Shown piece by piece: positions 20,382 through 57,081 of a DNA stretch of 64,000 bases. Both the position numbers and the translations under genes were made by a program. Source of the stretch: Candidatus Kuenenia stuttgartensis (GTDB lineage: Bacteria > Planctomycetota > Planctomycetia > Pirellulales > UBA1268); contig CALQRA010000002.1 in NCBI GenBank assembly GCA_943332855.1, forward strand, positions 19,154-83,153, written 5' to 3'. Below the pieces are notes generated by a model. The model was given only the letters and a program-made list of their open reading frames with translations, was not told the origin of the DNA and made no database searches. Position 1 is the first letter of the stretch. Every line of letters starts with the position of its first letter.

Positions 20382-20454
20382 GCCCCCATCGTCTAGTGGC
20401 CCAGGACGTCGGGTTCTCAGCTCGAAAACCGGGGTTCGACTCCCCGTGGGGGTA
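20382..20454 (+). tRNA. tRNA-Glu (anticodon CUC)
   Basis: Cloverleaf traced by hand. Acceptor GCCCCCA / TGGGGGT, D-arm TCTAGTGGCCCAGGA. Anticodon stem TCGGG/CTCGA with loop TTCTCAG (CTC). T-arm CGGGG-TTCGACT-CCCCG. No encoded CCA. Confidence 0.85.
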
Positions 20455-20904: not shown

Positions 20905-21924
20905 ATGCCAAAAAAAAGCTCCAACTGGCTCCCCGCTCTTCCCTTCGGCGATGCTCTGGCCCGCATCAGCAAGGATGCCTCCGGCTGCCAACGGACGTTG
21001 AGCGAAGCGATCCCGTCCCTGCGGTCGTGCGATCCGATCGGCAATCCAGACCACTTCCGGCAACGCACGATCTCGGTGCGCATCAAGGAGTTGTGCCTCG
21101 TTGCCTCGGCCACATCTCCGATGACGGCGAAGGCCGAGCGAAACGACCAGGCGCTCCTCCTCGTCCCCTTTTACGGCGCCACCACGCTCCGCTCCGGACC
21201 AATGACTCTCTCGAACCGCGCCGGGGAGTCGGCGATCTTCGTCCGGGGCCGCCACCGGGCCGGTGACGCGATCAGCCGGGGCCCGCGGTCCTCGCTCTGC
21301 ATCGCCCTCGACGTTACGCGTCTGGCCAGCACCGTCCGCGACATGCTCGGCCTGCCCGCCGACGCCCCGTTCCCGTTCGATCTCGACCGCGATCGCACGG
21401 TCCCCCTTGAATACGGGGGAGTCTCCTTCGACACGACGATCCGCCGCCTCTGCAACACCGTCGACGCCCATGTCCGGCAACCGGCCGTGCTCATGATGAT
21501 GGGGATCGACGACTCCTTCTACCGCACGATCGGCATGGCCCTGGCACCGGAGCACATCCTGCCAAAGGTGCTCCAAGCCGTCGCCTCGGACGACGACGAC
21601 GAACGGATCAGCCGGGTTTGTGACCACATCAAGGCCCACATCAGCGAACCCCTCGGTCTGACCCATTTGGAACAGGTCTTTGGCAGGGGCGCGCGGAGCC
21701 TCCAAATGGCGTTCCTGAAGCGGATCGGAGTCTCCCCAACGCGTTGGATCCGTGATATGCGCCTCGATCTCGCCCGTCAGCGCCTGGAATCGGCCGAAGC
21801 AGACGCCTCGGTGGCGGCCATCGCGACAGGGTGCGGATTCCCACGGCTGTCGACGTTCTCGAGGGAGTTTGCCGCTCGATTCGGCGAATCCCCTTCGAAA
21901 GTCCTCGAGCGCCGTCGGGCCTGA
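20905..21924 (+). CDS. AraC-family transcriptional regulator
   Basis: The C-terminal double HTH is typical of AraC/XylS (LGLTHLEQVFGRGARSLQMAFLKRIGVSPTRWIRDMRLDLARQRL...IATGCGFPRLSTFSREFAARFGESPSKV). Start is set at ATG 20905, because the track ORF start at 20503 would run through the tRNA terminator. Confidence 0.75.
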   Translation: MPKKSSNWLPALPFGDALARISKDASGCQRTLSEAIPSLRSCDPIGNPDHFRQRTISVRIKELCLVASATSPMTAKAERNDQALLLVPFYGATTLRSGPMTLSNRAGESAIFVRGRHRAGDAISRGPRSSLCIALDVTRLASTVRDMLGLPADAPFPFDLDRDRTVPLEYGGVSFDTTIRRLCNTVDAHVRQPAVLMMMGIDDSFYRTIGMALAPEHILPKVLQAVASDDDDERISRVCDHIKAHISEPLGLTHLEQVFGRGARSLQMAFLKRIGVSPTRWIRDMRLDLARQRLESAEADASVAAIATGCGFPRLSTFSREFAARFGESPSKVLERRRA

Positions 21925-22173
21925 CGTCCCGCGGCTCGATCGGCCCTTGCTGGCCTTCGTGGGCCTTGCAGGCGGCCGCCCCGACACCAAACCATCGCCC
22001 CGGGGCGGCCCTTCCCCCCGCAAAGCGTTGGCGATTCGCTCGGCGATTCGCCTGACGCACGCCACGCGAGGCACTCTGCCCCGCGCATCCCGCAGCAGTC
22101 TCGCTTTTTTTCGGCCCCGACACGCCGTGTTCTGCGTGAAGCGATTCGCTCGGCGCCGAAAGCCTGACGCGAC

Positions 22174-22197
22174 ATTGCGCAAAACGGACTTCGCAAT
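22174..22197. promoter_or_regulatory. Inverted repeat ATTGCG-N12-CGCAAT (candidate operator/UAS), copy 1
   Basis: ATTGCG 22174-22179, 12-nt spacer, CGCAAT 22192-22197. A related half-site TTTGCGCAAAACG recurs at 22209-22221. It lies in the 630-bp gap between the AraC gene and the PATR/PEP-CTERM gene. Confidence 0.5.
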
Positions 22198-22554
22198 GCG
22201 CTCATCGCTTTGCGCAAAACGTCTATCGCCGGCTCCATCACCCACCCGCTGAGGGAGGGCGTCGCGATCCCGAAAATCGCTTTTTTACAGCGGTTTTCTG
22301 CGGTTTTTTGAATTGGCTGAAAAGCCATCGTCAAACCCGGCCGCGATCCGCTTGCAACTTGGACTGATTCCGTCATGACTCACTCTGAGGGGCGGAGTGA
22401 GGAATCTGCCGACGCTGTTAACCGCCCAGACTCGATCGAGATAAGTCGGCTTCCTTCCGCCGCCGAGCGAATGCTCCACGATTCTGGGATCGCTGCTGAC
22501 TTTGTGGTTTCACTGGGCCTTGTTACTCGAAGCATCTCCACGAGTTATTCCAAA

Positions 22555-25488
22555 ATGCAGTCCAGAACTTTCCGCTTCATCGGCTTCGTCGCGTCAATCG
22601 CTTCGATCGGAGCACAAACCGCGGGTGTTGCCGCGGAGGTCGGCTGGTCGCCTCCCGCCCCGACGGCCACGGCATCGACCCTGTGGCTGAATGACGCCGC
22701 TGGATCCTCAACGCTGGGGCAGGGGATGCTCCAGCTCAATGGGCCTGCGGAATCCTTGGTGCTCACCGATCGCTCGACCGCCACCATCACGGGCCTTCTG
22801 ACCCTCACCGGGACCGTGCCGACCTTCCGCACGAGCGTCGCCACCGGTTCGCAGGATTCAATCGTCGGCATGAACATCGGCTCCGGGGATCCGCAGACAA
22901 GTAATGCCGGCAGAACCGTCGTCAATTCGCTTGTCGCCGATGCTGCTACCGACGTTTCCCAAATCACGAAGACCAGTCGGGGAACACTCCTGCTCGATGA
23001 CGCGAGCACCTACTCCGGCGCCACGACCCTGTTCGACGGATCGCTCGCCGCAGGCAACACGAAGTCGTTCGCCAGCGGGGCCTCCGGCCTCAATGGTGGT
23101 GCGATCTCTTCTCCGGATTTCCCCGCGGCCCCGTCTCGGACGTTTGCCAACAGCGCCTCTGTTGGAAGCACCGTGACGTTCGGAGACACGCTTTCCCCTG
23201 TCAATACCGGCTTCAGTAGCGGGATCGACCTCCAGGGCGCCGTGCGAACGTTCACGACCAACGCCAACGTCACCTTTGACGGCGTCGTCGCCAATGGTGC
23301 CGTCAGCAAGTCAGGAGCTGCCGCTCTGACGCTCACCGGGATCAACTCCTACGCCGGTGGCACCACGCTCACCGAGGGAACGCTGTTTGCCGCGAACAAT
23401 TCGGCCCTCGGCACCGGTCCGCTGGCCCTGGGGAGCACGTCCTCCCCGACGATTTCCTCGGATGCCAGCGGAGCCTCTGCCGCCCGCACATTTGCCAACG
23501 ACGTTTCGGTCAACGGCAACGTCACCTTCGGCGATGGCAGCAACAACGGCGCGATGCTCTTCGCGAGCTCCGCCAATCTGGGCAATGCCGGGGAAACGCG
23601 GACCTTCACGGTCAACGCCAAGACGACGTTCAGCGGAGAAGTCAGTGGTGGGGCAGGGCTGACGAAGACTGGCAGCGGTGTCCTCACGCTCTCCGGCAGT
23701 AATTCCTACTCCGGAGGAACGACGTTCGCCAGCGGGATGCTGAGCGCCGGCAGCAACGGCTCGTTTGGAACGGGGGCGATGACGTTCGCCGGGGGGGCCG
23801 TCGGATCGGCCGACAGCACCCCGCATACCTTCGCCAACTCCATGGTGTTCCTTGGCGATCTGACGATTGGAAACTACATCGACTCCATGGGTGCCCTGAC
23901 CTTCACGAGTCAGGTCGATCTTGGAAACACCGACCGTCGGCTGACGACGAAGGCGAACGCGACATTCACAGGGGCGATCGCCAACGGATCGATCACGAAG
24001 GACGGCCTCGGGGCCCTCGTGCTCTCCGGATCAAACTCGTACGGCGGCGGCACCACCCTCTTCGAGGGCACCTTGCTCGCAGGCAGCGATCAGGCCTTCG
24101 GGTCCGGCATGATGAATCTCAACGGCGGGATCATCGGTTCGGCCAGCGGCCAGCGATCGTTCTCCAACGCCGTGTCGATGGTCGGTGGACCGGTGCAATT
24201 CGGTGATTCCGAGCACCTCGCTTCCCTGCTCTTCACGGGCAGTACGACCCTCGCGGCTGGCCAGAAGACTTTCAACACCGTGGCCGACACCACGTTCACC
24301 GGCATTCTCGCTGGTAGCGGCGCGTCGCTCATCAAGACCGGTGACGGGATCCTCACGCTCACCAACGCCAACACCTACGACGGCGGCACGCAAATCCAGA
24401 ATGGAGTCATCCGTATCGCCAACGACGCGGCCCTCGGCGGCGGTGCGATCACGTTTGGCGGCGGTGCCCTCGCCTCGACCACCAGCGATAACCGGGGGAT
24501 TTACAACGACGTCAACTTCAACGGGGGCGCGTCGATCGGCGATGGCTCATCGAACGGAGCGTTCGTCTTCCACGGTGCCAACAATACTCTCGCCAGCGGC
24601 ACCCAGACGATCACCACGAATGTCGCCACGACGTTTGTCAACGGGATCACCGGGGCCGGCGGCCTGACGAAGTCGGGGGCTCATGCCCTCACCCTAAAGG
24701 GACTCAACACGTACACCGGCGACACGGTTATCGAGAGCGGCAAACTCGTCCTCGATGGATCGATCCTCGGGTCGAAGGAGATCCGCCTCGCCGCAGGTGC
24801 CGTTCTCGGAGGCCATGGCCGGTTCGACGGGACGATCTCCGGGGCCGGCAGCGTCGACCCGGGGAATAGCCCGGGCATTCTCGTCACCGGCACCATCGAT
24901 CCCTCGGGTGGGCTCGACTTCAACTTCGAGTTCACGCAGACGGGTGCTGCGACTTGGACGAACAGTTCGGCGAGCGGTAACGACGTCCTTGTCGCCAACG
25001 TTCCTACCCCGGCCTTCACGGCGAACCTCACCAACGCCAACACCGTCAACCTTTACTTCTCGACGGCTATGACAGCGACATTCACGGCAAGTGCTTGGAC
25101 ATCGATGCAGGGCGGTTTCTTCACCATCGATAACACCAACAGCCTCGCCTCTGCCATCGCCGGCGCGGACTTCCAGTTCTACTTCCAGGGTACCGGTGCC
25201 GGCCAAATCACCTACAACACTGTCACTTACGTCCCCCAGGCTACAGCCCGCAGCAGTGGCCTCCTTCCGGCCAGCGGGCAAGGGTTCGTCATCCGGCAAG
25301 CAACCGTGGCATCCGCCAACTTTCAGTCTCCTGTTGGCACCGTCATCAACGGTCTCTCGATGGAAGTCGTCTCGGTCCCTGAGCCTTCCACCTGGGTGAT
25401 GGGGCTCATGGCCGCCGGCGTGGCCCTCGCCCGTCGTCGCCGTCTGGCTGGTTTGCTCACCCGGTTGCGGAGATCCGTTCCGCTTTGA
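22555..25488 (+). CDS. Large surface protein: autotransporter-associated beta-strand (PATR) repeats with C-terminal PEP-CTERM sorting signal
   Basis: Start at ATG 22555 gives the signal MQSRTFRFIGFVASIASIGAQTAGVAA. There are more than 10 repeats of the type G.LTLSG.NSY.GGTT...G.L. The C-terminus is VPEPSTWVMGLMAAGVALARRRR (PEP motif + TM + Arg cluster). Confidence 0.8.
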   Translation: MQSRTFRFIGFVASIASIGAQTAGVAAEVGWSPPAPTATASTLWLNDAAGSSTLGQGMLQLNGPAESLVLTDRSTATITGLLTLTGTVPTFRTSVATGSQDSIVGMNIGSGDPQTSNAGRTVVNSLVADAATDVSQITKTSRGTLLLDDASTYSGATTLFDGSLAAGNTKSFASGASGLNGGAISSPDFPAAPSRTFANSASVGSTVTFGDTLSPVNTGFSSGIDLQGAVRTFTTNANVTFDGVVANGAVSKSGAAALTLTGINSYAGGTTLTEGTLFAANNSALGTGPLALGSTSSPTISSDASGASAARTFANDVSVNGNVTFGDGSNNGAMLFASSANLGNAGETRTFTVNAKTTFSGEVSGGAGLTKTGSGVLTLSGSNSYSGGTTFASGMLSAGSNGSFGTGAMTFAGGAVGSADSTPHTFANSMVFLGDLTIGNYIDSMGALTFTSQVDLGNTDRRLTTKANATFTGAIANGSITKDGLGALVLSGSNSYGGGTTLFEGTLLAGSDQAFGSGMMNLNGGIIGSASGQRSFSNAVSMVGGPVQFGDSEHLASLLFTGSTTLAAGQKTFNTVADTTFTGILAGSGASLIKTGDGILTLTNANTYDGGTQIQNGVIRIANDAALGGGAITFGGGALASTTSDNRGIYNDVNFNGGASIGDGSSNGAFVFHGANNTLASGTQTITTNVATTFVNGITGAGGLTKSGAHALTLKGLNTYTGDTVIESGKLVLDGSILGSKEIRLAAGAVLGGHGRFDGTISGAGSVDPGNSPGILVTGTIDPSGGLDFNFEFTQTGAATWTNSSASGNDVLVANVPTPAFTANLTNANTVNLYFSTAMTATFTASAWTSMQGGFFTIDNTNSLASAIAGADFQFYFQGTGAGQITYNTVTYVPQATARSSGLLPASGQGFVIRQATVASANFQSPVGTVINGLSMEVVSVPEPSTWVMGLMAAGVALARRRRLAGLLTRLRRSVPL

Positions 25489-26554: not shown

Positions 26555-29500
26555 TCAGGCGCTCGGCGCGGCCAACAGCGCTTCGACCTCGGCCAAGCGG
26601 CGCTGGTCGGGCGTCGAGAGCCAGCGATTACCCAGCCCCTTTCGCTTCGCCTCCTCGAGCGCCTTGCGGGATTCCGCAAGATTGCCATTGGCGGCCTCGA
26701 TCACCGCCAGGTGGAGCAATCGCAGCGGGGTCGGCTCGAGCACGGCAGCCTGGCAGTCTTCGAGGGCCCGGATCGGAAGCCCCAGCGACAGCCGGACCAT
26801 CGACCGGGTGTCGAGGAGCTCCGGATCAGGGCCGAGCACCCGAATCGCCCGGTCGAGCAGTTCGGCGGCCTCGGGAGCCGTCTCGTCACGCGTCAGGAGC
26901 CAGGCCAGATTGGCGGCGACGCGGGCCTCCTGCTCCTCGCCGAGCCCGTCCGCGGCCAGGAGTCGGCGGTAGATCGCCTCCGATTCCACAGGACTCCCCA
27001 GACGTTCCTCAATCGATGCCGCCCAAAACTCGACCTCGAGGTTGCCCGGATTCTCGCGCCGAGCCCGGTCGATGATCGCCGCGACTTTGGACGCCAGCGA
27101 CCGCTCGAGTGTGCCGGGGGCCTGCTTGAGGATTCCCTGGAGCGTGGCGAGGATCCGGGGGATAGGAAAATCGCCGATGAGCGGCACGAGGAGATCGACC
27201 GCTTCGGCGATTTTCCCCTGGCGACCGAGGAAGGCCGCTCGATCGAGCGCACCGAGCGTGGCAAGCGTGGCGTATTCCTCGTAAAACCGGGCAGCCGGTT
27301 CGACAAATCCGAACTCCTCGGCGATCCGGGCGCCCGCCAGGAGCCGGTCGATGTTCTCCTTCCGCACCCGCTCGTCAGGCAGGATTCGCTTCATGACGCG
27401 GCCGATCACGGCCGGATTCCCCTCGGCGATCGCCATCTTCAATTCGAGCCGGCGCAGCGTGGGCGAATCCTTGTCGCCGACGCGGGATCGCCCCATCCAC
27501 TGCCGGGCGGAGAGCAGATCGCCGTGGTCGAGGAGGCCGTCGACCAGGAATGCCCGCAGGGCCGGCGTGGCGTCGTCGGTGAGCGCGACGTCGAGGAGGA
27601 CCTTCCGGGCCTCCTCCCAACGCCCCAGCTGGGCCTCCATCCGTCCCAGGGCAAACCGCTCGTCGACGGTCAGCGCTCGCCGCTCGGCGAGGGTTCCGAG
27701 CAGACCAATCGCCTGCCGCCAGTGCACCGGCTCCTTCCGCGCCTGGAGCAAGTCCACCGACACCGCCAGATCGTCGGTGGCCTGATGCCCCTCCCCGTCC
27801 ACGTTCCGCTCGAGCAGGACGAGGGCTTCCTGGAACTCGGGGTAGGTCCCCTTGGCCAACTGGATGGCCAGAACCCGCCGCGCCCAAACGAGCGTCGGCG
27901 TGCCCTGGGCGGGAGCGAGGGTGATGATCCGCCGCAGTTCCTTGCGGGCCTCGTCGTCGCGACCGGATCGGATGAGAAACTCCGTGAGATTCCGGGCGGC
28001 GTCGAGATCGTCGGCTGCAGCCTCGACCTTGGAACGGTACACCGCTTCGGCCCCGGCCAGATCCTCGATCACCTCCAGGGCCCGGGCGCTCAACAGATGC
28101 CGGCGGTCGTCGTCGATTGCCACCTCGGCCACCCGGATCGCCTCGCGGGCATCGTTGCGCCGCCCCTGCGAGACGAGGAACTTGACGAGTGTCAGCCGGC
28201 AGTCGGGGCGGTCGGGGGCGACGAGGATCGCCTGTCGGAACGCCGTCTCGGCCTGCTTCAGCCGGCCGTAGCCGGCAACCAGTCGGCCGAACCACATCCA
28301 TTGCTGGGGATCGCGGCAATCCTCCGGGGTGATCCGTTCGGCGCGGGACAGCGCCGCAGAAACCCTCCCCGTGCGCCCCTCCAAGTCGGAGATGATCCGT
28401 TCGATGGCAATCCCCCCGTGCCCCTCGAGGTCGCGAATCACCTCCTGGGCCTCGTCGTAACGCCGCGCCGCGTGGAGCATGATCGCCATCCGGCGGAGCG
28501 TGGCCCACTGCCGCCCGCCAAGATCGATCGCCCTTTGCAACTCGCCGATCGCAAGGTTGCGATCCCCGCGGATCTCGGCGATTTCGCTCAACAAACGCGG
28601 CACCGCGCTCCAGCGGGGACGGTCGGTCTCCACCTCGACGAGGAGATGCCTGGCCTCCTCGAGATCGACCCCATCCTCGACCGACATGGACACCCCGACC
28701 GCATCCCCGTCTAACCGGTCGCGACGACGCTCCAGCACCAGGGCCACGAGCTTCACCGCCTTGCCGTATCGGCCGTTGGCATCATCGGGATGGGCCATCG
28801 TCACGAGGGATTCCGCGTGGGCCTGGATCGCGGCAAAATCCTCCTCGATAAACCCCAGATCAATGAGCGTCATGAAGCTCGTGAGATCATCGCCGTTGAG
28901 CTTGGACATGCTCGTGGCCACGCGCCGGGCCCCGTCGACATCGCCGACCTGGAGAAACGCCGAGACCAATTCCTGCCTCACCCTCCCCCCGGCCGTCGCG
29001 GACAGCCCGGCAGCCCGTAGCTCGACTTCCTCCAACCGACGCATGGCCTCGCTCTGCGGGAATTCCAGGGCAATCAGAACAGCGGCCCGGAGCATCTCGG
29101 CGGCATTCCGCAGCTCCTCCGGCGCCCCATCGATGACCTGCACCGCCGAATCGCCCCCCAGCAACACCGCCCGCTGACCGAGGAGAATCGGCGACCGGGG
29201 GTGGGTGGCGACCGCGATCGCCGAACGGGCCAGAGCCTGCGCCCGCAAGCCCTTCGCCTCGATGACGTCGATCTCCAATCCCTCGAGCAGGGCTGGGTCG
29301 ATCGGGTCAGTGGGCGTCGCGGTCTTGAGATCGGCCAAGAGCGTGTCGACCTTCGACCAGTCACGCTCGGCGACGGGACGTCGCGTCTGCTCCCAGAGCC
29401 GCATGCGGATGAGCGGAACGAACACCGCGGGCCGTCCCGCCAGACTGCCGATCGGCATCTCCTTGGCGATCGTCTCACAGAGCTCGAGCGAACGATCCGA

Positions 29501-30892
29501 CCAGCCGACCCGCTCGAATGTCAGCGCCAGGGTGAGGAGCGCCTCGATCAGGTTCGGGTCCTCGTTGAGGAGCCTGAGGCCCGCGCCGACGGTCCGGTCA
29601 GACTCGCCGAGGGCATCGTGGCAGGAGGCGAGGCGGAGATCGACCATCCGGGTGTAGGCGGCATCACCCACCATCAGCGGGCGGAGCTTGAGCCACAATC
29701 CGAGCGATTTGACCCACCGGTGCTCGTCCATCGCGACGACCGCGTCGGCATAGAGCGCCGGCACGCAGTTTCTCCCCATCAGCTCGCGGGCCCGGGTGAC
29801 TGCCTGCTCAAGCTCCTCGAAAAGCTTCAGATCGGCGAGTGAAAAGACATACTTCGTCAGCACGCGGGTCTCGTCGGGAAAGCGCTCAACGCCATCGCGG
29901 AGAAACCCGATCATCGCCTCGGTATCCCCCTTGGCGAGGGCGAGATCCGCCCGGGCGATCGTGAAGGCGGGACTATCGGCAAGGTCGACGAGAAGGCCGT
30001 TGATGATCGCCTCTGCCCGGTCGAGACGGCGCCGCCGCATCGCGACGCAGAACTCCTGATAGAGCGATTCCGGGTCGCGTGGCGACAGGGCCACCGACTT
30101 CTCGATCGCCACCTCGGCCGCTTCGAGATCCCCATGGGTGTCCCACCACCAGGAGAGATAGCGCCAGGCCACGGGGTCGGCGTCGGCCACCTCCTCCAGA
30201 CGGTGCATCACCCCTGTGGCCGAGTCCCGATCCTTAAACTGCCGGTCGAGCAGCCCTGCCAGGAGGAGGAAGGCCTCGGCCCGCCCCGGGGCGGGCTGGA
30301 TCGTCGGATCGAAGGCCCGGATGACCGGGATATACCCGGTCATGGTGCCGAGAACGTCCATCGCCTCATCGTCGAGTCGGATGTTGATGCAGGCCTTGGC
30401 GTACATGATGTCGAGCTTGACGGCATGGCGGTCCTCGGCCGGATCGGCCATCGGCAGCCCCTTCACCCCCAACTGGCGCCGAAGTGGCTTGAGGAGCTCG
30501 TAGGCCGTCGACGACTCCCCGGCGGCGACGGCGAACTCGGCGAACATCTCACACAGCTCGTCGTCATCCGGCGCGCCGCGGAGGGCTTTATCCAGCGCAT
30601 TGATCGCCTCCCTCACCTGGTAGGAGGGAGCCCCCTTCGACCGGGCCCGGGCGTGAAGGAGAAGGGCATACTGCCGGATCCGTTTCTTGTCATGGGGACG
30701 GTAGATGAAGTAATGCTCGAGCTCCCCGATGGCTTCGTCCGGCTTCCCGTCCGCCTCGTACTCGTCGGCCCGGCGCGCATGCCCCTCGGCATTCCGCTCG
30801 ATCTGCCACCCGTGGAGGAAGTACACCCCGACCGTCGCGCCCAAAAAGCAGGCCAAGACGCTGAAAAAAAAGCGATAATTGACGCGTTGCAT
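26555..30892 (-). CDS. Giant membrane-anchored TPR-repeat protein (1445 aa)
   Basis: N-terminal TM (FFFSVLACFLGATVGVYFL) followed by TPR-like helical repeats across the whole length. The antisense ORFs are junk composition. Confidence 0.8.
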   Translation of the reverse strand: MQRVNYRFFFSVLACFLGATVGVYFLHGWQIERNAEGHARRADEYEADGKPDEAIGELEHYFIYRPHDKKRIRQYALLLHARARSKGAPSYQVREAINALDKALRGAPDDDELCEMFAEFAVAAGESSTAYELLKPLRRQLGVKGLPMADPAEDRHAVKLDIMYAKACINIRLDDEAMDVLGTMTGYIPVIRAFDPTIQPAPGRAEAFLLLAGLLDRQFKDRDSATGVMHRLEEVADADPVAWRYLSWWWDTHGDLEAAEVAIEKSVALSPRDPESLYQEFCVAMRRRRLDRAEAIINGLLVDLADSPAFTIARADLALAKGDTEAMIGFLRDGVERFPDETRVLTKYVFSLADLKLFEELEQAVTRARELMGRNCVPALYADAVVAMDEHRWVKSLGLWLKLRPLMVGDAAYTRMVDLRLASCHDALGESDRTVGAGLRLLNEDPNLIEALLTLALTFERVGWSDRSLELCETIAKEMPIGSLAGRPAVFVPLIRMRLWEQTRRPVAERDWSKVDTLLADLKTATPTDPIDPALLEGLEIDVIEAKGLRAQALARSAIAVATHPRSPILLGQRAVLLGGDSAVQVIDGAPEELRNAAEMLRAAVLIALEFPQSEAMRRLEEVELRAAGLSATAGGRVRQELVSAFLQVGDVDGARRVATSMSKLNGDDLTSFMTLIDLGFIEEDFAAIQAHAESLVTMAHPDDANGRYGKAVKLVALVLERRRDRLDGDAVGVSMSVEDGVDLEEARHLLVEVETDRPRWSAVPRLLSEIAEIRGDRNLAIGELQRAIDLGGRQWATLRRMAIMLHAARRYDEAQEVIRDLEGHGGIAIERIISDLEGRTGRVSAALSRAERITPEDCRDPQQWMWFGRLVAGYGRLKQAETAFRQAILVAPDRPDCRLTLVKFLVSQGRRNDAREAIRVAEVAIDDDRRHLLSARALEVIEDLAGAEAVYRSKVEAAADDLDAARNLTEFLIRSGRDDEARKELRRIITLAPAQGTPTLVWARRVLAIQLAKGTYPEFQEALVLLERNVDGEGHQATDDLAVSVDLLQARKEPVHWRQAIGLLGTLAERRALTVDERFALGRMEAQLGRWEEARKVLLDVALTDDATPALRAFLVDGLLDHGDLLSARQWMGRSRVGDKDSPTLRRLELKMAIAEGNPAVIGRVMKRILPDERVRKENIDRLLAGARIAEEFGFVEPAARFYEEYATLATLGALDRAAFLGRQGKIAEAVDLLVPLIGDFPIPRILATLQGILKQAPGTLERSLASKVAAIIDRARRENPGNLEVEFWAASIEERLGSPVESEAIYRRLLAADGLGEEQEARVAANLAWLLTRDETAPEAAELLDRAIRVLGPDPELLDTRSMVRLSLGLPIRALEDCQAAVLEPTPLRLLHLAVIEAANGNLAESRKALEEAKRKGLGNRWLSTPDQRRLAEVEALLAAPSA

Positions 30893-52598: not shown

Positions 52599-52638
52599 CG
52601 CCGCCGCCTCGGGCGGGCGGGGCTCACGCATCGCGCTC

Positions 52639-52678
52639 AAAAAAAAGGGGAGCAGGCCCCTCTCGGAACCTGCTCCCC
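52639..52678 (-). terminator. Rho-independent terminator for the minus-strand PEP-CTERM ORF
   Basis: 10-bp stem GGGGAGCAGG (52647-52656) pairs with CCTGCTCCCC (52669-52678). On the minus strand the hairpin is followed by T8 (A-run 52639-52646). It lies 36 nt downstream of the minus-strand stop at 52714-52716. Confidence 0.7.
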
Positions 52679-52713
52679 CCGCGAATCGATCACGAGACGT
52701 TCAGCGCGAGGCG

Positions 52714-53085
52714 TCAGGCCACCACCCGCCGCCGGCGCTCGAGGAGCCCAAGCGCCCCGCCCACGAGGGCCAGCACCGAGCCCATCCCGGCCGGGTCGAT
52801 TTCGGGCACGGCCTGGAGGGGCGAGATCTCCACGCTCAGCGGACTGAAAAATGCACTTTTTTCGTTCGTTCCGTTCGTCACGGTGATCCGAAAAGATTCG
52901 AAGGCGTTGCCGGAGAACGTTGTAGAGGTGCCAGAAAAGTCAGCCAGATACGCCGCCGGCGTCGGTGGGTTGACTTGCGAAATGGGGCTCCTCCGCAGAC
53001 TCCGTGAGCGCAGACCGGCTTGAGAGAAAGCCTGATGCGGGCTGCAACAGAGCCGCCACCGCAGTCCGCCGGCAGCCGTGGCCGG
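52714..53085 (-). pseudogene. Small PEP-CTERM protein gene lacking an in-frame start (probable frameshift), absent from the ORF track
   Basis: Hand translation of the minus frame ending at TGA 52714-52716 gives ...YLADFSGTSTTFSGNAFESFRITVTNGTNEKSAFFSPLSVEISPLQAVPEIDPAGMGSVLALVGGALGLLERRRRVVA*. The frame is open back to a stop at 53086-53088, but no ATG, GTG or TTG precedes the domain. An ATG-initiated ORF in another frame (MALTGHGCRRTAVAALLQPAS..., within ORF 52940-53296) ends at 52940 inside this frame. Confidence 0.45.
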
Positions 53086-53385
53086 TCAAGGCCATGACCC
53101 GTCGGGCCGCGGTGGCGGCATCAGGCTTCGTCCGGCCGACCGCCGCCCGGAGACAGACGTTCGGCCGCACAGGAAGAGGCGGAGGAGTCCCACCCAACCT
53201 GCCACCATGGCAGACTCCAAGATTAATCGCGAAGCATCGCTCCGGCTCAGACCCGAAGCGATGCCCCGGCAGGAAGACAGCCTCCTGCCGGGGCACACGC
53301 TCTTACTGCTGCTATGCCGCTAGCAGAGGAGAAGAAGGGATCAGGGGGATCAAAGGGATAAAGGGCAAAAGCCCAAAGGGAACCG

Positions 53386-54435
53386 TCAGCGGCCGTACCG
53401 CCGTCGTTCCAGTAACCCAAGTCCACCGAAGAGCAGCCCCAACACGGCACTCAAACCGCTCGGGTCGATCTCGGGGACGCCGGAGGGGCCGCTGACCGGA
53501 CTTGCGAGACGAAAACCGACGGTGAGGCCCGCGGTCTCCGGGTCTAACGAGCCACGGCAGGAGGACGACATAAGGAACGCAATGCCGTTCCAATTGCCGC
53601 CACGCTGCCCACGAGACGAGCCGGAAGCACCCGTGAGGTCGTTCCATTCATACACGTTGCCGCTCATGTCAAACGCCCCGTAGAAGCTCGGCCCGCCGTT
53701 GGTCCCCACCGTCGTCACGATGCCATTTTGGCCATTCCAGACAGCGTTATTGTCGTAGTTCGCGAAGTTGCCGGTGCTGCCAGCGGAGCCGTTTCCTGTC
53801 GAATCCGCCGTCACCGCCGTCGGGGCCAAATCGCTCTGCGTGGCGTAATTCCAGTAGCCGGCGCTGGTGCCTCCACCCTTGTAGTACGCCGCCTTGTACC
53901 ACTGGTCTTCCGTCGGGAGGTAGAACGTCGCGCCCGAGTTGACCGCCGGGGCCGTGCCGCTCGTCTGGCCGCCGACGAGCGTATACGCCCCTGTCTCTGT
54001 GCTCGACGAGCTTGTGGCGCCGTTCATCAGCCAGTTGGAGACTCGTGCCGCATCGAACCAACTCACGTATTCCACCGGCTTGTCGCCCATGTTCGACCTC
54101 GCGGCGTACTTGCTGCCAGAGGCCGCATCAGGTGTGAGACTGATCCCTCCACGGCCGTCGGTGCCCATGCTCGTGTTGTAGACGGAATAGGGATTGGTGC
54201 CGCTTGAATCGACGGAGTTCAGGAAGTCGGTGTACTGCTGGTTCGTGAACTGATATTTTGCAATCCGGAATGAAGCGGCCACGGCACCGTAGCCATCAGA
54301 GTCGGTATCAGCCGTGTTTCCCGGGTCGCCGACCGTCACCCACTCGATGATTCCGGCGTTGGCGATAGAGCCCAACGGGAGGCAGGCCAAGGCAGCCAGC
54401 CAAAGGGAAAAAGCTTTCAAAGAAAAGTACCGCAT
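53386..54435 (-). CDS. SUMF1/FGE-domain (formylglycine-generating-enzyme-like) protein with PEP-CTERM anchor
   Basis: Signal MRYFSLKAFSLWLAALACLPLGSIANA. FGE-sulfatase-type motifs PVEYVSWFDA, GAFDMSGNVYEWN, RGGNW, GFRLA. C-terminus VPEIDPSGLSAVLGLLFGGLGLLERRRYGR. Confidence 0.85.
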   Translation of the reverse strand: MRYFSLKAFSLWLAALACLPLGSIANAGIIEWVTVGDPGNTADTDSDGYGAVAASFRIAKYQFTNQQYTDFLNSVDSSGTNPYSVYNTSMGTDGRGGISLTPDAASGSKYAARSNMGDKPVEYVSWFDAARVSNWLMNGATSSSSTETGAYTLVGGQTSGTAPAVNSGATFYLPTEDQWYKAAYYKGGGTSAGYWNYATQSDLAPTAVTADSTGNGSAGSTGNFANYDNNAVWNGQNGIVTTVGTNGGPSFYGAFDMSGNVYEWNDLTGASGSSRGQRGGNWNGIAFLMSSSCRGSLDPETAGLTVGFRLASPVSGPSGVPEIDPSGLSAVLGLLFGGLGLLERRRYGR

Positions 54436-54525
54436 GCGATCGTCCTTCCCATAACGTAAATCGGCGTTCGACGGAGGGCGAAAAACCTACCCCCTCTTCG
54501 GTCTAAAGCACCCCCCCACTTCCGT

Positions 54526-54582
54526 CAAGGCCCTGCCAAGGCCCTGCCAAGGCCCTGCCAAGGCCCTGCCAAGGCCCTGCCA
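54526..54582 (-). repeat. 11-bp tandem repeat x5 (CAAGGCCCTGC on +; GCAGGGCCTTG on -) forming phased sigma-54 -24/-12-like elements
   Basis: Perfect copies at 54526, 54537, 54548, 54559 and 54570. The minus strand reads TG-GCAGGGCCTTG x5, giving four overlapping TGGCAG-N5-TGGCA units. The consensus is TGGCAC-N5-TTGCW, and GG and GC are correctly spaced. The array lies 91-147 nt upstream of the FGE/PEP-CTERM ATG (54435). Confidence 0.6.
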
Positions 54583-54691
54583 CAAGTTTCGCGAAGTTTC
54601 CGCCAGCCACGGCCGCCAGATCACTTTCACCCCCCAGTTTTTTAGCCCACATCGCAAGCACCCCACGCAGAAAGCGCAACGGACCACGCGC

Positions 54692-54715
54692 ATTGCGAAA
54701 GACACTTTGCGCAAT
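54692..54715. promoter_or_regulatory. Inverted repeat ATTGCG-N12-CGCAAT (candidate operator/UAS), copy 2
   Basis: ATTGCG 54692-54697, 12-nt spacer, CGCAAT 54710-54715. It lies ~110-190 bp upstream (minus-strand sense) of the sigma-54-like repeat elements. Confidence 0.5.
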
Positions 54716-54734
54716 TTCCCCCACCGGCGACTCG

Positions 54735-54986
54735 TCACCCCCGGATCCCATCGCCGGGGGGAATGGTGCTCATCGCCCCGGCTAGGACGGCTCGCTCGAC
54801 GGGGTGGCGGCCGTCATTCGCGGGGCGCGTGGAACGACGCCGGAAACGTTTCCCCCCCTCGCCGTCCGTGGCGGGGGCACGGGGCTCCTTGGCGGCGAAA
54901 TCCTCCCCCAGGTCGTCGATCCCCGCCATCGGGAGCGGGTCGTCGGCAGGGTCCTCGGGCGTCTCGCCGTTCTCTCCGCTCGGCAT
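54735..54986 (-). CDS. Possible small acidic protein (83 aa)
   Basis: ATG 54986 with strongly GC-biased third codon positions by hand count. No recognisable family, and the GGAAGG directly abuts the ATG (poor SD spacing). Confidence 0.3.
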   Translation of the reverse strand: MPSGENGETPEDPADDPLPMAGIDDLGEDFAAKEPRAPATDGEGGKRFRRRSTRPANDGRHPVERAVLAGAMSTIPPGDGIRG

Positions 54987-55092
54987 CCTTCCGACCGCAT
55001 GCCCGGCGACGACCGCACCGGCATAGAGCGGCAGGCACGGGCCGAACCGGCTGGGGAGCAGCGCCCCACGACGCCGGCCGCGGAGCGCAGCG

Positions 55093-57081
55093 TCAGCTCT
55101 TCTTCGCCCACCGGGTGAGCTTGCGGTCGAGAGTCGATCGCTCGATGCCGAGCATCGCTGCCGCCTTTGTTTTGTTGCCGCCGACCGCAGCGAGGGTCGC
55201 CATGATGTGGCGGCGCTCCAGTTCCTCGATGGTCTGCGGTACGAACGCGCCGGTCGGCCCGCCCGTCCCGCGCCCCGTGCCGCGACCGGTGTCGCCGGAT
55301 GGTGCGAGTTGGCTCAACGCCAGATCCGACGTGTCGATCGTGTCGTGCGTGGAGAGCACGACGGCCCGCTCGATGCAGTTGCGCAGCTCGCGGATGTTCC
55401 CCGGCCACTGGTAGCCGAGGAGGGCCTCGAGGGCGGCGGGGGAGAAGTCGTGCACACCCCGCCCCGTCTCGGCGGCGAACCGGGCGAGGAAGTGCCTGGC
55501 CAACGGCTCGATGTCCTCGCGCCGGCGCCGCAGCGGCGGCACGACAATCTCCACCACCTTGAGACGGAAGTAGAGGTCACGACGGAACTCATTGGCCGCC
55601 ACCGCCTCCTCGAGATTGCGGTTGGTGGCCGCCACGACGCGGACGTCGACCTGCACCCGCTGGCTGCCGCCGACACGCTCGAACGAATGCCCCTCGAGAA
55701 CACGGAGGAACTTCGCCTGGATCGTCTGGCTCATCTCGCCGATCTCGTCGAGGAACAGCGTTCCCCGGTGGGCAGCCTCGAACTTCCCCGCCTTCCGTTC
55801 GGTGGCGCCGGTGAAGGCGCCCTTCTCGTGCCCGAACAGCTCGCTCTCCAGGAGCGTTTCGGTCAGCGCAGCGCAGTTGAGGCAGACAAACGCCGCGGTG
55901 CGGCGGTCGCTGGCGTCATGGATCGCCCGGGCGACGAGCTCCTTGCCGGAGCCACTCTCCCCGCGCACCAGCACCGTCGCCTTGGTCGACGCGACGCGGG
56001 CGATCTGGCTGACGATATTCGACAGGGCCGGACTCCCTCCCACCATCCGCGACTCCTCCCGGAGCCGCTGCCGGAGACGTTCATTCTCGTCGGAGGTGCT
56101 CGCGAGGCGAACGGAAAGCCGCTCCCGCGTCGAGAGATTCTCAACAGCGATCCCCAGGGCGTCGCAGACCGCCATCACGAACTCGAGGTCGTCGGGGGTC
56201 GCTGGTCGGCCGCCGGCGGCCTGTTCGACATGGAGGACGCCGACCGGCCGCCCACCGACGCGCACCGGTGCCGAGATCGCCGAGCGTGAATCGTCGACCG
56301 CGGCCCCGGCAACCGGGGCTTGCGGCGCACGCCCGACGAGGATCGCCTCGTTCGAGGCGAGGACAGTTGCCACGGCTCCGGCGGGGAGCCCGCCTTCAGG
56401 CGGCCACCCCGGGGGCGCTGCCGCCGCCGGCACGAGCGACGCCACACCGGTGGGCGCCCGCCATTCCGCCGCCGGTCCGAGGGGAGGGAAGAGAACGACA
56501 CCATGGGGGGCTCCGGCACCATCCATCGCGGCATCGAGCGCCAAGCGGGCCACCTCGGCGATGTCGGTCGCGCGGGCGAGGGCGAAGGCGAGCCGGCAGA
56601 GACTGGCCGCAGCCTTGCCGACGCGGGGCACGCTGCCGGCCGATTCACCGATGTCGTCGAGAAGCCGCGTCTTGTCGCGGCGGAGCGTGATCGCATCGGA
56701 CCACTTCCGCATGTCACTGGTGACTTCGGAGGTCTCCGTCGCCTCGTCGGAGAGCCCGGACAGGTCGGTCGGCGGATCCCCTTCGCCGAATACGATCTCC
56801 GCCCCGCCGATGCGGATCGTGTCCCCCGCGGCGAGCGTCCGCTCACCGACGATCGGCTCGCTCCCCACGATCGTGCCGTTGCGGCTGCCGACGTCCCGCA
56901 CCACCCAGTTGGGGGCCACCGCCATCACCTCGGCATGGAAGCGGCTGGAACGCTCGTCGTGGAGGACGATGCTGTTGGAGGGCCCACGGCCGATCGTGCA
57001 CGGCTGCCCCGGGTAAAGACGGACAACGCTGTGGCCGACGGTGGGATCGAGGACGAGCAGAAAGGCGGGATTAGATTCCAT
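55093..57081 (-). CDS. Sigma-54-dependent transcriptional activator: FHA + GAF + AAA+ (GAFTGA) + Fis-type HTH
   Basis: ATG 57081. FHA: CTIGRGPSNSIVLHDERSSRFHAEV...VRDVGSRNGT. A GAF-like middle follows. AAA+: VLVRGESGSGKELVARAIH, ESELFGHEKGAFTGA, LFLDEIGEM. C-terminal HTH: NKTKAAAMLGIERSTLDRKL. Confidence 0.85.
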   Translation of the reverse strand: MESNPAFLLVLDPTVGHSVVRLYPGQPCTIGRGPSNSIVLHDERSSRFHAEVMAVAPNWVVRDVGSRNGTIVGSEPIVGERTLAAGDTIRIGGAEIVFGEGDPPTDLSGLSDEATETSEVTSDMRKWSDAITLRRDKTRLLDDIGESAGSVPRVGKAAASLCRLAFALARATDIAEVARLALDAAMDGAGAPHGVVLFPPLGPAAEWRAPTGVASLVPAAAAPPGWPPEGGLPAGAVATVLASNEAILVGRAPQAPVAGAAVDDSRSAISAPVRVGGRPVGVLHVEQAAGGRPATPDDLEFVMAVCDALGIAVENLSTRERLSVRLASTSDENERLRQRLREESRMVGGSPALSNIVSQIARVASTKATVLVRGESGSGKELVARAIHDASDRRTAAFVCLNCAALTETLLESELFGHEKGAFTGATERKAGKFEAAHRGTLFLDEIGEMSQTIQAKFLRVLEGHSFERVGGSQRVQVDVRVVAATNRNLEEAVAANEFRRDLYFRLKVVEIVVPPLRRRREDIEPLARHFLARFAAETGRGVHDFSPAALEALLGYQWPGNIRELRNCIERAVVLSTHDTIDTSDLALSQLAPSGDTGRGTGRGTGGPTGAFVPQTIEELERRHIMATLAAVGGNKTKAAAMLGIERSTLDRKLTRWAKKS

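Follow-up and report, generated by a model that had tools for sequence, protein, structure and literature searches.

A 44-bp composite element made up of four TGCGCA-like hexamers stands upstream of two genes for PEP-CTERM-type secreted proteins in a 64,000-nt stretch of planctomycete DNA (hereinafter the window). The element is real and conserved, and from its sequence and surroundings we infer that it is a previously undescribed cis-regulatory array of a clade of freshwater and wastewater Planctomycetia, one that probably acts as a transcription-factor operator and defines an exosortase-cargo regulon. We found no earlier description of it in the literature on PEP-CTERM and AraC, on VPEID-CTERM or on Planctomycetes promoters, and TTGCGCAA, the outer block of the first copy described below, is known in the literature only as a eukaryotic C/EBP site. 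To our knowledge, almost nothing has been reported on the transcription factors of Planctomycetes or on the DNA sites that they recognise.

How exosortase (PEP-CTERM) cargo is regulated outside Proteobacteria is a question that dates back to Haft et al. 2006 (PMC1569441). The element offers a testable handle in the form of a 44-bp probe, a defined set of PATR- and FGE-like targets and a single named regulator as candidate. Its confirmation would mean that a cargo regulon evolved independently with other, apparently sigma-54-independent, machinery, and would help to predict which surface proteins uncultured freshwater and wastewater bacteria deploy together.

Two copies of a directional four-hexamer element

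The original prediction held that one 6+6 inverted repeat, ATTGCG-N12-CGCAAT, occurs at two positions of the window, both in long intergenic regions. Both points were borne out: the pattern matches exactly twice in the 64 kb (22174–22197 and 54692–54715), compared with 0.01 matches expected from dinucleotide-preserving shuffles, none of 100 of which contained two or more, and the two copies lie in intergenic regions of ~630 nt (21925–22554) and 657 nt (54436–55092). A scatter at the frequency set by base composition, coding regions included, which had been named as evidence against the prediction, is not what the window contains. The additional half-site-like TTTGCGCAAAACG described at 22209–22221 is present as well. 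Once copy 2 is turned into its reverse complement, the sequence of either site toward its gene is ATTGCGCAAA-N6-TTCGCAATGCGC-N8-TTGCGC, with 22 of 28 specified bases identical plus a third block; this longer gene-ward match indicates that the 6+6 repeat is a mere fragment of a larger directional element.

Alignment of about 20 non-redundant relatives delimits a conserved core of ~44 bp with four TGCGCA-like hexamer palindromes, whose centres are 14, 7 and 14 bp apart; hexamers 1 and 3, like hexamers 2 and 4, are separated by 21 bp. The middle two hexamers form GCGCA-W-TGCGC, the AAT and ATT variants of which are mutually reverse-complementary. The gene-proximal hexamer is the most degenerate of the four, and is lost in the orthologue L180 through a deletion of ~26 nt. 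The arms of the 6+6 repeat cover one half each of hexamers 1 and 2, and the repeat cannot be upheld as the unit, since in 5 of 15 non-redundant sites one of its base pairs is disrupted with no compensating change.

Site 1 (class I; 22174–22217, forward strand; 54.7 bits with the position weight matrix described below) comprises hexamers A (22176–22181, TGCGCA), B1 (22190–22195, TTCGCA), B2 (22197–22202, TGCGCT) and C (22211–22216, TGCGCA), and can be written as TTGCGCAA-N9-CGCAATGCG-N9-TTGCGCAA with its symmetry centre at base 22196. Site 2 (class II; 54672–54715, reverse strand; 74.5 bits) contains the same element, with hexamers A (54713–54708, TGCGCA), B1 (54699–54694, TTCGCA), B2 (54692–54687, TGCGCG) and C (54678–54673, TGCGCT). 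The matrix, built from 16 non-redundant sites, detects only sites 1 and 2 in the 64 kb, all other positions scoring below 8 bits and randomised windows reaching a maximum of 0; a looser scan of the window for hexamer spacing also returns sites 1 and 2 only. TGCGCA itself occurs 11 times in the window against 17.6 ± 4.3 expected, and a depletion that might betray a restriction system was rejected, the shortfall not being significant.

Putative target genes in the window

Site 1 precedes a gene on the forward strand (22555–25488) whose secreted product has PATR repeats (autotransporter-like beta-strand repeats) and a PEP-CTERM tail, which passes both Pfam PF07589 (29.8 bits, cutoff 20.7) and TIGR02595 (20.4 bits, cutoff 16). 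Site 2 precedes a gene on the reverse strand (53386–54435) for a secreted FGE-sulfatase-domain protein with a tail of the form VPEIDPS...LLERRRYGR; this tail, VPEIDPSGLSAVLGLLFGGLGLLERRRYGR, is VPEID/PEP-CTERM-like by eye and matches no model. The similar tail of the L140 protein reaches 23.3 bits with TIGR04161 (cutoff 33, E = 5e-5), and the L180 protein has a weak precomputed match to PF27847. The identities of both downstream genes had been correctly anticipated; the start of the PATR gene had not, its ATG being at 22555 rather than at 22566. The two sites thus precede 2 of 2 PEP-CTERM-type genes and none of the other ~35 of the roughly 37 genes. The window annotation includes neither an exosortase nor a third protein with a PEP-CTERM-type tail.

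Recurrence in related Planctomycetota

About 40 further copies of the element were found in related Planctomycetota, in public genomes and metagenomes, and all are intergenic. In species-representative genomes, a scan for the A+B core, with 17 specified bases, was too loose: most of the 118 matches listed were chance ones in unrelated phyla, and 5 belonged to true relatives. It identified at least 5 Planctomycetota with the full architecture. A more specific pattern returned 48 stretches from metagenomes, about 39 of which are the element. The other ~9 were set aside as (TTGCGCA)n arrays or as matches in low-GC contigs 5′ of rpsD, 5′ of an integrase-like gene or inside open reading frames. Pure (TTGCGCA)n heptamer arrays occur in the unrelated contigs L137, L141, L154, L166, L167 and L169, in L141 and L169 upstream of the gene for ribosomal protein S4; they matched the search pattern and are not associated with cargo genes.

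The copies fall into five sequence classes, between which only the 44-bp core is common and the flanks are unrelated. The motif points toward the downstream gene wherever such a gene can be identified; at a few sites that are nearly symmetric, both strands match. The non-redundant downstream proteins number 31, of which 15 belong to the PATR type and 12 to the FGE-sulfatase type (27/31). Most of the others are contig-end fragments, and the complete downstream proteins carry PEP-CTERM or VPEIDP...RRR tails. Beyond the window, where a pattern search had been suggested along with the original prediction, the motif stands before some 30 more cargo genes of the PATR or FGE type in related genomes. 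At L145, two tandem FGE paralogues have one motif copy each. L014 (class V) and L184 (class I) belong to one assembly, GCA_947453375.1, so a second species also has several sites per genome.

Conservation of the class I locus

Class I sites share a gene order of hypothetical gene, Ser/Thr kinase gene, AraC-family regulator gene, motif, PATR gene, hypothetical gene and TPR protein gene, and this synteny is found with every AraC orthologue examined, over identities of 68–100%. Phylogenetic footprinting, proposed at the outset as a check, singles out the motif as the best-conserved block across six orthologous promoters: in the alignment of the AraC-PATR intergenic regions, 24 of 44 motif columns are invariant, compared with 85 of 627 columns elsewhere, and the best-conserved 44-column windows lie within 22168–22217, coinciding with the motif. 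This pattern suggests that the class I motif is under purifying selection.

The same intergenic region contains a second conserved block (22050–22098, forward strand), which begins with GCCTGACGC. GCCTGACGC recurs within the 12 nt directly 5′ of site 1 (22162–22170), about 112 bp away, and the block could be an older copy that has degenerated, or else a distinct site. The interval from site 1 to the start codon of the PATR gene contains two overlapping terminator-like hairpins with T-runs (22264–22298, forward strand). Across the orthologues, one sequence of which is out of register, the T-runs recur and conservation of the structure is unconvincing. A tRNA gene (20382–20454, forward strand), the sole Rfam match in the window, lies directly upstream of the AraC gene.

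The class II module and its putative promoter context

Site 2 lies, together with a promoter region and the FGE gene, in a lineage-specific segment of ~2.5 kb (52599–55092). Upstream of this segment is a gene for an FHA-GAF-sigma54-HTH_8 enhancer-binding protein (EBP) and downstream of it a NYN/YacP gene. In relatives whose EBP is 87%, 75% or 70% identical to that of the window, the segment is missing, the NYN/YacP gene starts 12–24 bp after the EBP gene, and neither an FGE gene nor the motif was found within 10 kb of the EBP gene. Only L155, with an EBP 96% identical, has the EBP-FGE arrangement of the window. As the FGE unit and the motif are missing at the EBP loci of relatives, the FGE unit represents a 2.5-kb insertion.

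The class II module is >90% identical over ~300 nt at three unrelated genomic positions, with homology that begins ~35 nt before the motif and extends as far as the ATG, and site 2 is retained both in the orthologue L155 and in the paralogous modules. Because class II is a recently duplicated module, conservation within it does not count as independent evidence; independent support comes from the about five classes and the orthologous series, so that the weight falls on comparisons between classes and between orthologues. At L138, a class II module with an N-terminal FGE remnant is fused ahead of a PATR gene, and at L134 an ISL3 transposase gene lies 3′ of the module.

The interval from site 2 to the putative FGE promoter contains an 11-nt tandem array (54526–54582, reverse strand; 5.2 copies of TTGGCAGGGCC on the gene strand). 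Loci differ in the copy number and in the unit sequence of this array, class II loci overall having 1–5 copies between motif and promoter and the paralogous class II modules 1–3. The array of L155 (10920–10977) has 5.3 copies, every unit of which has the same two substitutions (TTGGTAGGGAC), indicating that arrays are homogenised lineage by lineage. In classes III–V, 2–5 copies of a CCCGWTTCGTCC box recur with a period of ~21 nt between the motif and the putative −35 box. The box CCCG(A/T)TTCGTCC is seen at L151 (11291–11388) and also at L014, L098, L132, L139, L145, L150 and L156. It resembles the AlgR/LytTR 9-mer CCGTTCGTC, and a second regulator may bind there.

The putative sigma70-type promoter of the FGE gene (54500–54528, reverse strand), proposed from conservation, consists of TTGACG (54528–54523), a 17-nt G-rich spacer and TAGACC (54505–54500), and would leave a leader of ~58 nt with a GGAAGGA ribosome-binding site. 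The pattern TTGACR-N15-18-TA is shared by 11 of the 20 loci, nearly all from class II, and lies 100–145 nt past the motif in 10 of 11 class II loci; similar −35/−10-like boxes are found in classes III–V. The 3′ end of the motif is roughly 150–350 bp from the start codon and, where a putative sigma70-type −35 box can be recognised, about 70–145 bp from that box. Given the helically phased repeats in between and this distance to the putative promoter, the motif appears to be a distal element. Its distance from the putative −35 box is unusually long for the site of a simple sigma70 activator, which counts against the operator reading proposed below.

Proposed operator and candidate binding proteins

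The most plausible reading of the element is that a multimeric, sequence-specific transcription factor binds the four-hexamer array, which would present two interleaved hexamer pairs, each 21 bp or two helical turns apart. Such a factor would co-regulate dispersed single-gene cargo units as one regulon, the cargo being secreted PATR adhesin-like and FGE-sulfatase-like proteins with PEP-CTERM or VPEID-type exosortase sorting tails. The element itself, its conservation, its orientation and its association with these genes are seen directly at the loci, and the predicted protein binding, candidate binder, presumed direction of regulation and putative promoter positions are read from them. The core idea of a small surface-protein regulon with a shared site thus stands, the site being specific, conserved and recurrent; the anatomy first proposed for the site does not, and the sigma-54 activator proposed as its binder is disfavoured.

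Two regulator genes had been pointed out as encoding candidate binders close to the sites, an AraC-family gene (20905–21924, forward strand) and the FHA-GAF-sigma54-HTH_8 gene (55093–57081, reverse strand), and both were confirmed as such genes. The AraC-family protein, encoded directly 5′ of site 1, is the best candidate. It has the C-terminal double helix-turn-helix of the family (PF12833 HTH_18, 66.3 bits, cutoff 33.6), its gene always lies directly upstream of the class I site, and it is the only regulator gene that consistently adjoins any copy of the motif. The candidate is plausible because synteny is kept over 68–100% identity. Its homologues form a narrow group, with 16 clusters at 68–100% identity and the next at 32%, a distribution that appears compatible with that of the motif. 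The gene adjoins class I sites only, so its product is unproven as the binder, and the adjacency could be plain synteny among close relatives. At sites of classes II, III and V, Pfam searches of 8 proteins encoded nearby revealed no regulator. The two helix-turn-helix motifs of one AraC-type monomer are typically spaced ~10–11 bp apart, unlike the hexamers here, which are spaced at 14 bp. We name the AraC-family protein as a tentative candidate with somewhat less than an even chance of being the binder; binding by another, unlinked factor has a chance that likewise approaches evens without reaching it. The EBP is at best a highly improbable binder, since its adjacency to site 2 results from the lineage-specific insertion, which removes the argument from proximity, and sigma-54 promoters are not generally found 3′ of the motif.

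Alternative explanations

Two copies of a 6+6 repeat are by themselves weak evidence, and a GC-rich genome could contain two short AT-rich palindromes that are alike by chance. With 0.01 copies expected, with a match that extends to 22 of 28 bases and into a third block, and with some 40 more copies elsewhere, this reading is already refuted and its probability negligible. It is also unlikely that the motif is non-regulatory, whether as a passenger in a copied promoter-plus-gene module or as a mobile-element scar or recombination site. Such an origin would account for the near-identity of the class II modules at unrelated positions, where homology starts only ~35 nt upstream of the motif, for the location of site 2 within the 2.5-kb insertion, for the transposase gene 3′ of the L134 module and for the motif copies at each of the tandem paralogues in L145. 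Against it, the sharing between classes is confined to the 44-bp core while flanks and downstream gene families differ, and the core is the most conserved intergenic block of class I loci that are stable over AraC identities of 68–100%. The orientation of the motif relative to its gene is fixed, and no terminal inverted repeats, target-site duplications or recombinase genes were found alongside it at the loci examined. Integron attC-like and MITE readings were rejected too: there is no integrase and there are no terminal repeats, and the motif lies 5′ of genes in stable synteny.

Slightly less room is left for an element that acts as RNA, a hairpin 5′ leader or small RNA controlling translation or termination of the cargo mRNAs, which we consider quite unlikely. 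The repeat arms can pair over 6–8 bp, the distance from motif to start codon is long, and the terminator-like hairpins at 22264–22298 lie 3′ of site 1, all as this reading would have it. RNAalifold analysis of 15 non-redundant sites, however, yielded invariant pairs only, with a covariation term of 0.08 and not one compensatory change, and the sole variable position of the 6+6 stem is the one at which the pair is broken in 5 of the 15 sequences. Every hexamer is itself palindromic, which a stem does not need; Rfam gives no match to the element, and the hairpin after site 1 is not convincingly conserved. Palindromic hexamers, fixed spacing and uncompensated changes instead fit the recognition of duplex DNA by a protein. 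That this protein is the FHA-GAF-sigma54 EBP, with the motif serving as an upstream activating sequence from which the EBP loops to a −24/−12 promoter in the way proposed for PrsR, has a precedent in Haft et al. 2006 (PMC1569441). Site 2 and the EBP gene share a strand, with the end of the gene 377 bp upstream of the site, and the 11-mer array, about 120–170 bp past the motif, reads TGGCAGG-N4-TGGCA four times on the gene strand and ties for the best sigma-54-like score in the window. This reading is nevertheless largely refuted and hardly probable. Neither the FGE gene nor the motif accompanies the EBP within 10 kb in its 87%, 75% and 70% identical relatives, and at 62–65% identity the EBP is present in >100 Planctomycetota clusters, a distribution far broader than that of the motif. 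Across 20 non-redundant loci, the best −24/−12 score between motif and ATG averages 13.5, compared with 13.6 for random segments. Only 2 of the 20 score high, by virtue of the 11-mer array, and the −12 GC is lost in the orthologue, the array unit TTGGTAGGG of L155 and L164 destroying it; site 1 has no sigma-54 promoter candidate at all. The EBP moreover falls below the PrsR cutoff and has FHA and GAF domains instead of a receiver domain. The 11-mer array was accordingly rejected as a set of overlapping sigma-54 promoters, being neither conserved in the orthologue and paralogues nor enriched across the 20 loci.

Comparison with known regulatory systems

In Proteobacteria, PEP-CTERM genes form single-gene units with >200 nt of upstream DNA, which share a 17-nt motif 1 ending in TTTACA and a sigma-54 motif 2 and are associated with the regulators PrsK, PrsR and PrsT; motif 1 lies about 63 nt from the −24/−12 promoter, from which about 71 nt lead to the ATG (Haft et al. 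2006, PMC1569441). In that study, only Proteobacteria shared those motifs; others were predicted outside the phylum, and further motifs as well as regulators were still to be found. Like the proteobacterial system, the planctomycete motif lies in long non-coding DNA before dispersed, mostly single-gene PEP-CTERM units, is absent from coding regions and marks a cargo regulon. Unlike the 17-nt motif 1, it is a 44-bp array of four TGCGCA palindromes located 150–350 nt from the ATG. Alignment of both intergenic regions of the window and of all classes showed no conserved block ending in TTTACA, the core being TGCGCA-based, and the −24/−12 element is not conserved 3′ of the planctomycete motif. The EBP of the window scores 339.3 bits with the PrsR model TIGR02915, compared with a cutoff of 502.6 bits, and lacks the receiver domain. 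As the tests for sequence, for sigma-54 and, among the proteins of the window, for PrsR all failed, the planctomycete element is best seen as a different system of the same kind.

The preferred operator reading also invites comparison with AraC/XylS activators. Their sites, such as araI1-I2 of Escherichia coli AraC and those of Pseudomonas aeruginosa ArgR, consist of two tandem half-sites ~21 bp apart. The element resembles them in its footprint of ~40–45 bp, its 21-bp periodicity, its fixed orientation to the promoter and the AraC-family gene beside one target. By contrast, it is built from palindromic hexamers spaced at 14 bp where AraC/XylS sites have asymmetric 17-bp half-sites, and it seems to be positioned well 5′ of the −35 box, which those sites abut. 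The placement of an AraC-family gene beside a gene for a C-terminally sorted surface protein recalls the Firmicutes regulators of TIGR04094 (YSIRK-targeted surface antigen transcriptional regulator). The AraC protein of the window matches that model weakly (E = 1.6e-6, 27 bits, far under the 200-bit cutoff), and the Firmicutes case differs in phylum and in relying on sortase instead of exosortase, which leaves the likeness as an analogy only.

Phase-variable adhesins are controlled at operators that contain methylation sites, by OxyR and Dam at agn43 and by Lrp and Dam at pap. The presence of several short palindromes in a regulatory site upstream of autotransporter-like adhesin genes is a speculative point of resemblance. 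In an epigenetic or contingency switch of this kind, a methyltransferase acting on TGCGCA would compete with the regulator, and the 11-nt and 21-nt arrays would shift spacing by whole turns; if so, exosortase-sorted adhesins in Planctomycetes would show heritable on/off or graded expression. Unlike at agn43 and pap, there is no sign of a TGCGCA methyltransferase, nor is TGCGCA significantly depleted in the window, and we regard such a switch as very unlikely.

Other features of the window

A large TPR protein gene (26555–30892, reverse strand) lies just 3′ of the motif-bearing PATR gene, and its product has a weak, sub-threshold similarity to PrsT (93 bits, cutoff 312). At L162 (5752–8451), a large TPR protein with phosphodiesterase, TPR and sulfotransferase domains is also encoded just 3′ of a motif-bearing PATR gene, and TPR genes in this position occur in two classes. 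Between 43800 and 47300 (~3.5 kb), the window has no open reading frame with the high third-position GC typical of its remainder. This stretch may be foreign or non-coding DNA, and relatives differ in gene content at the same position.
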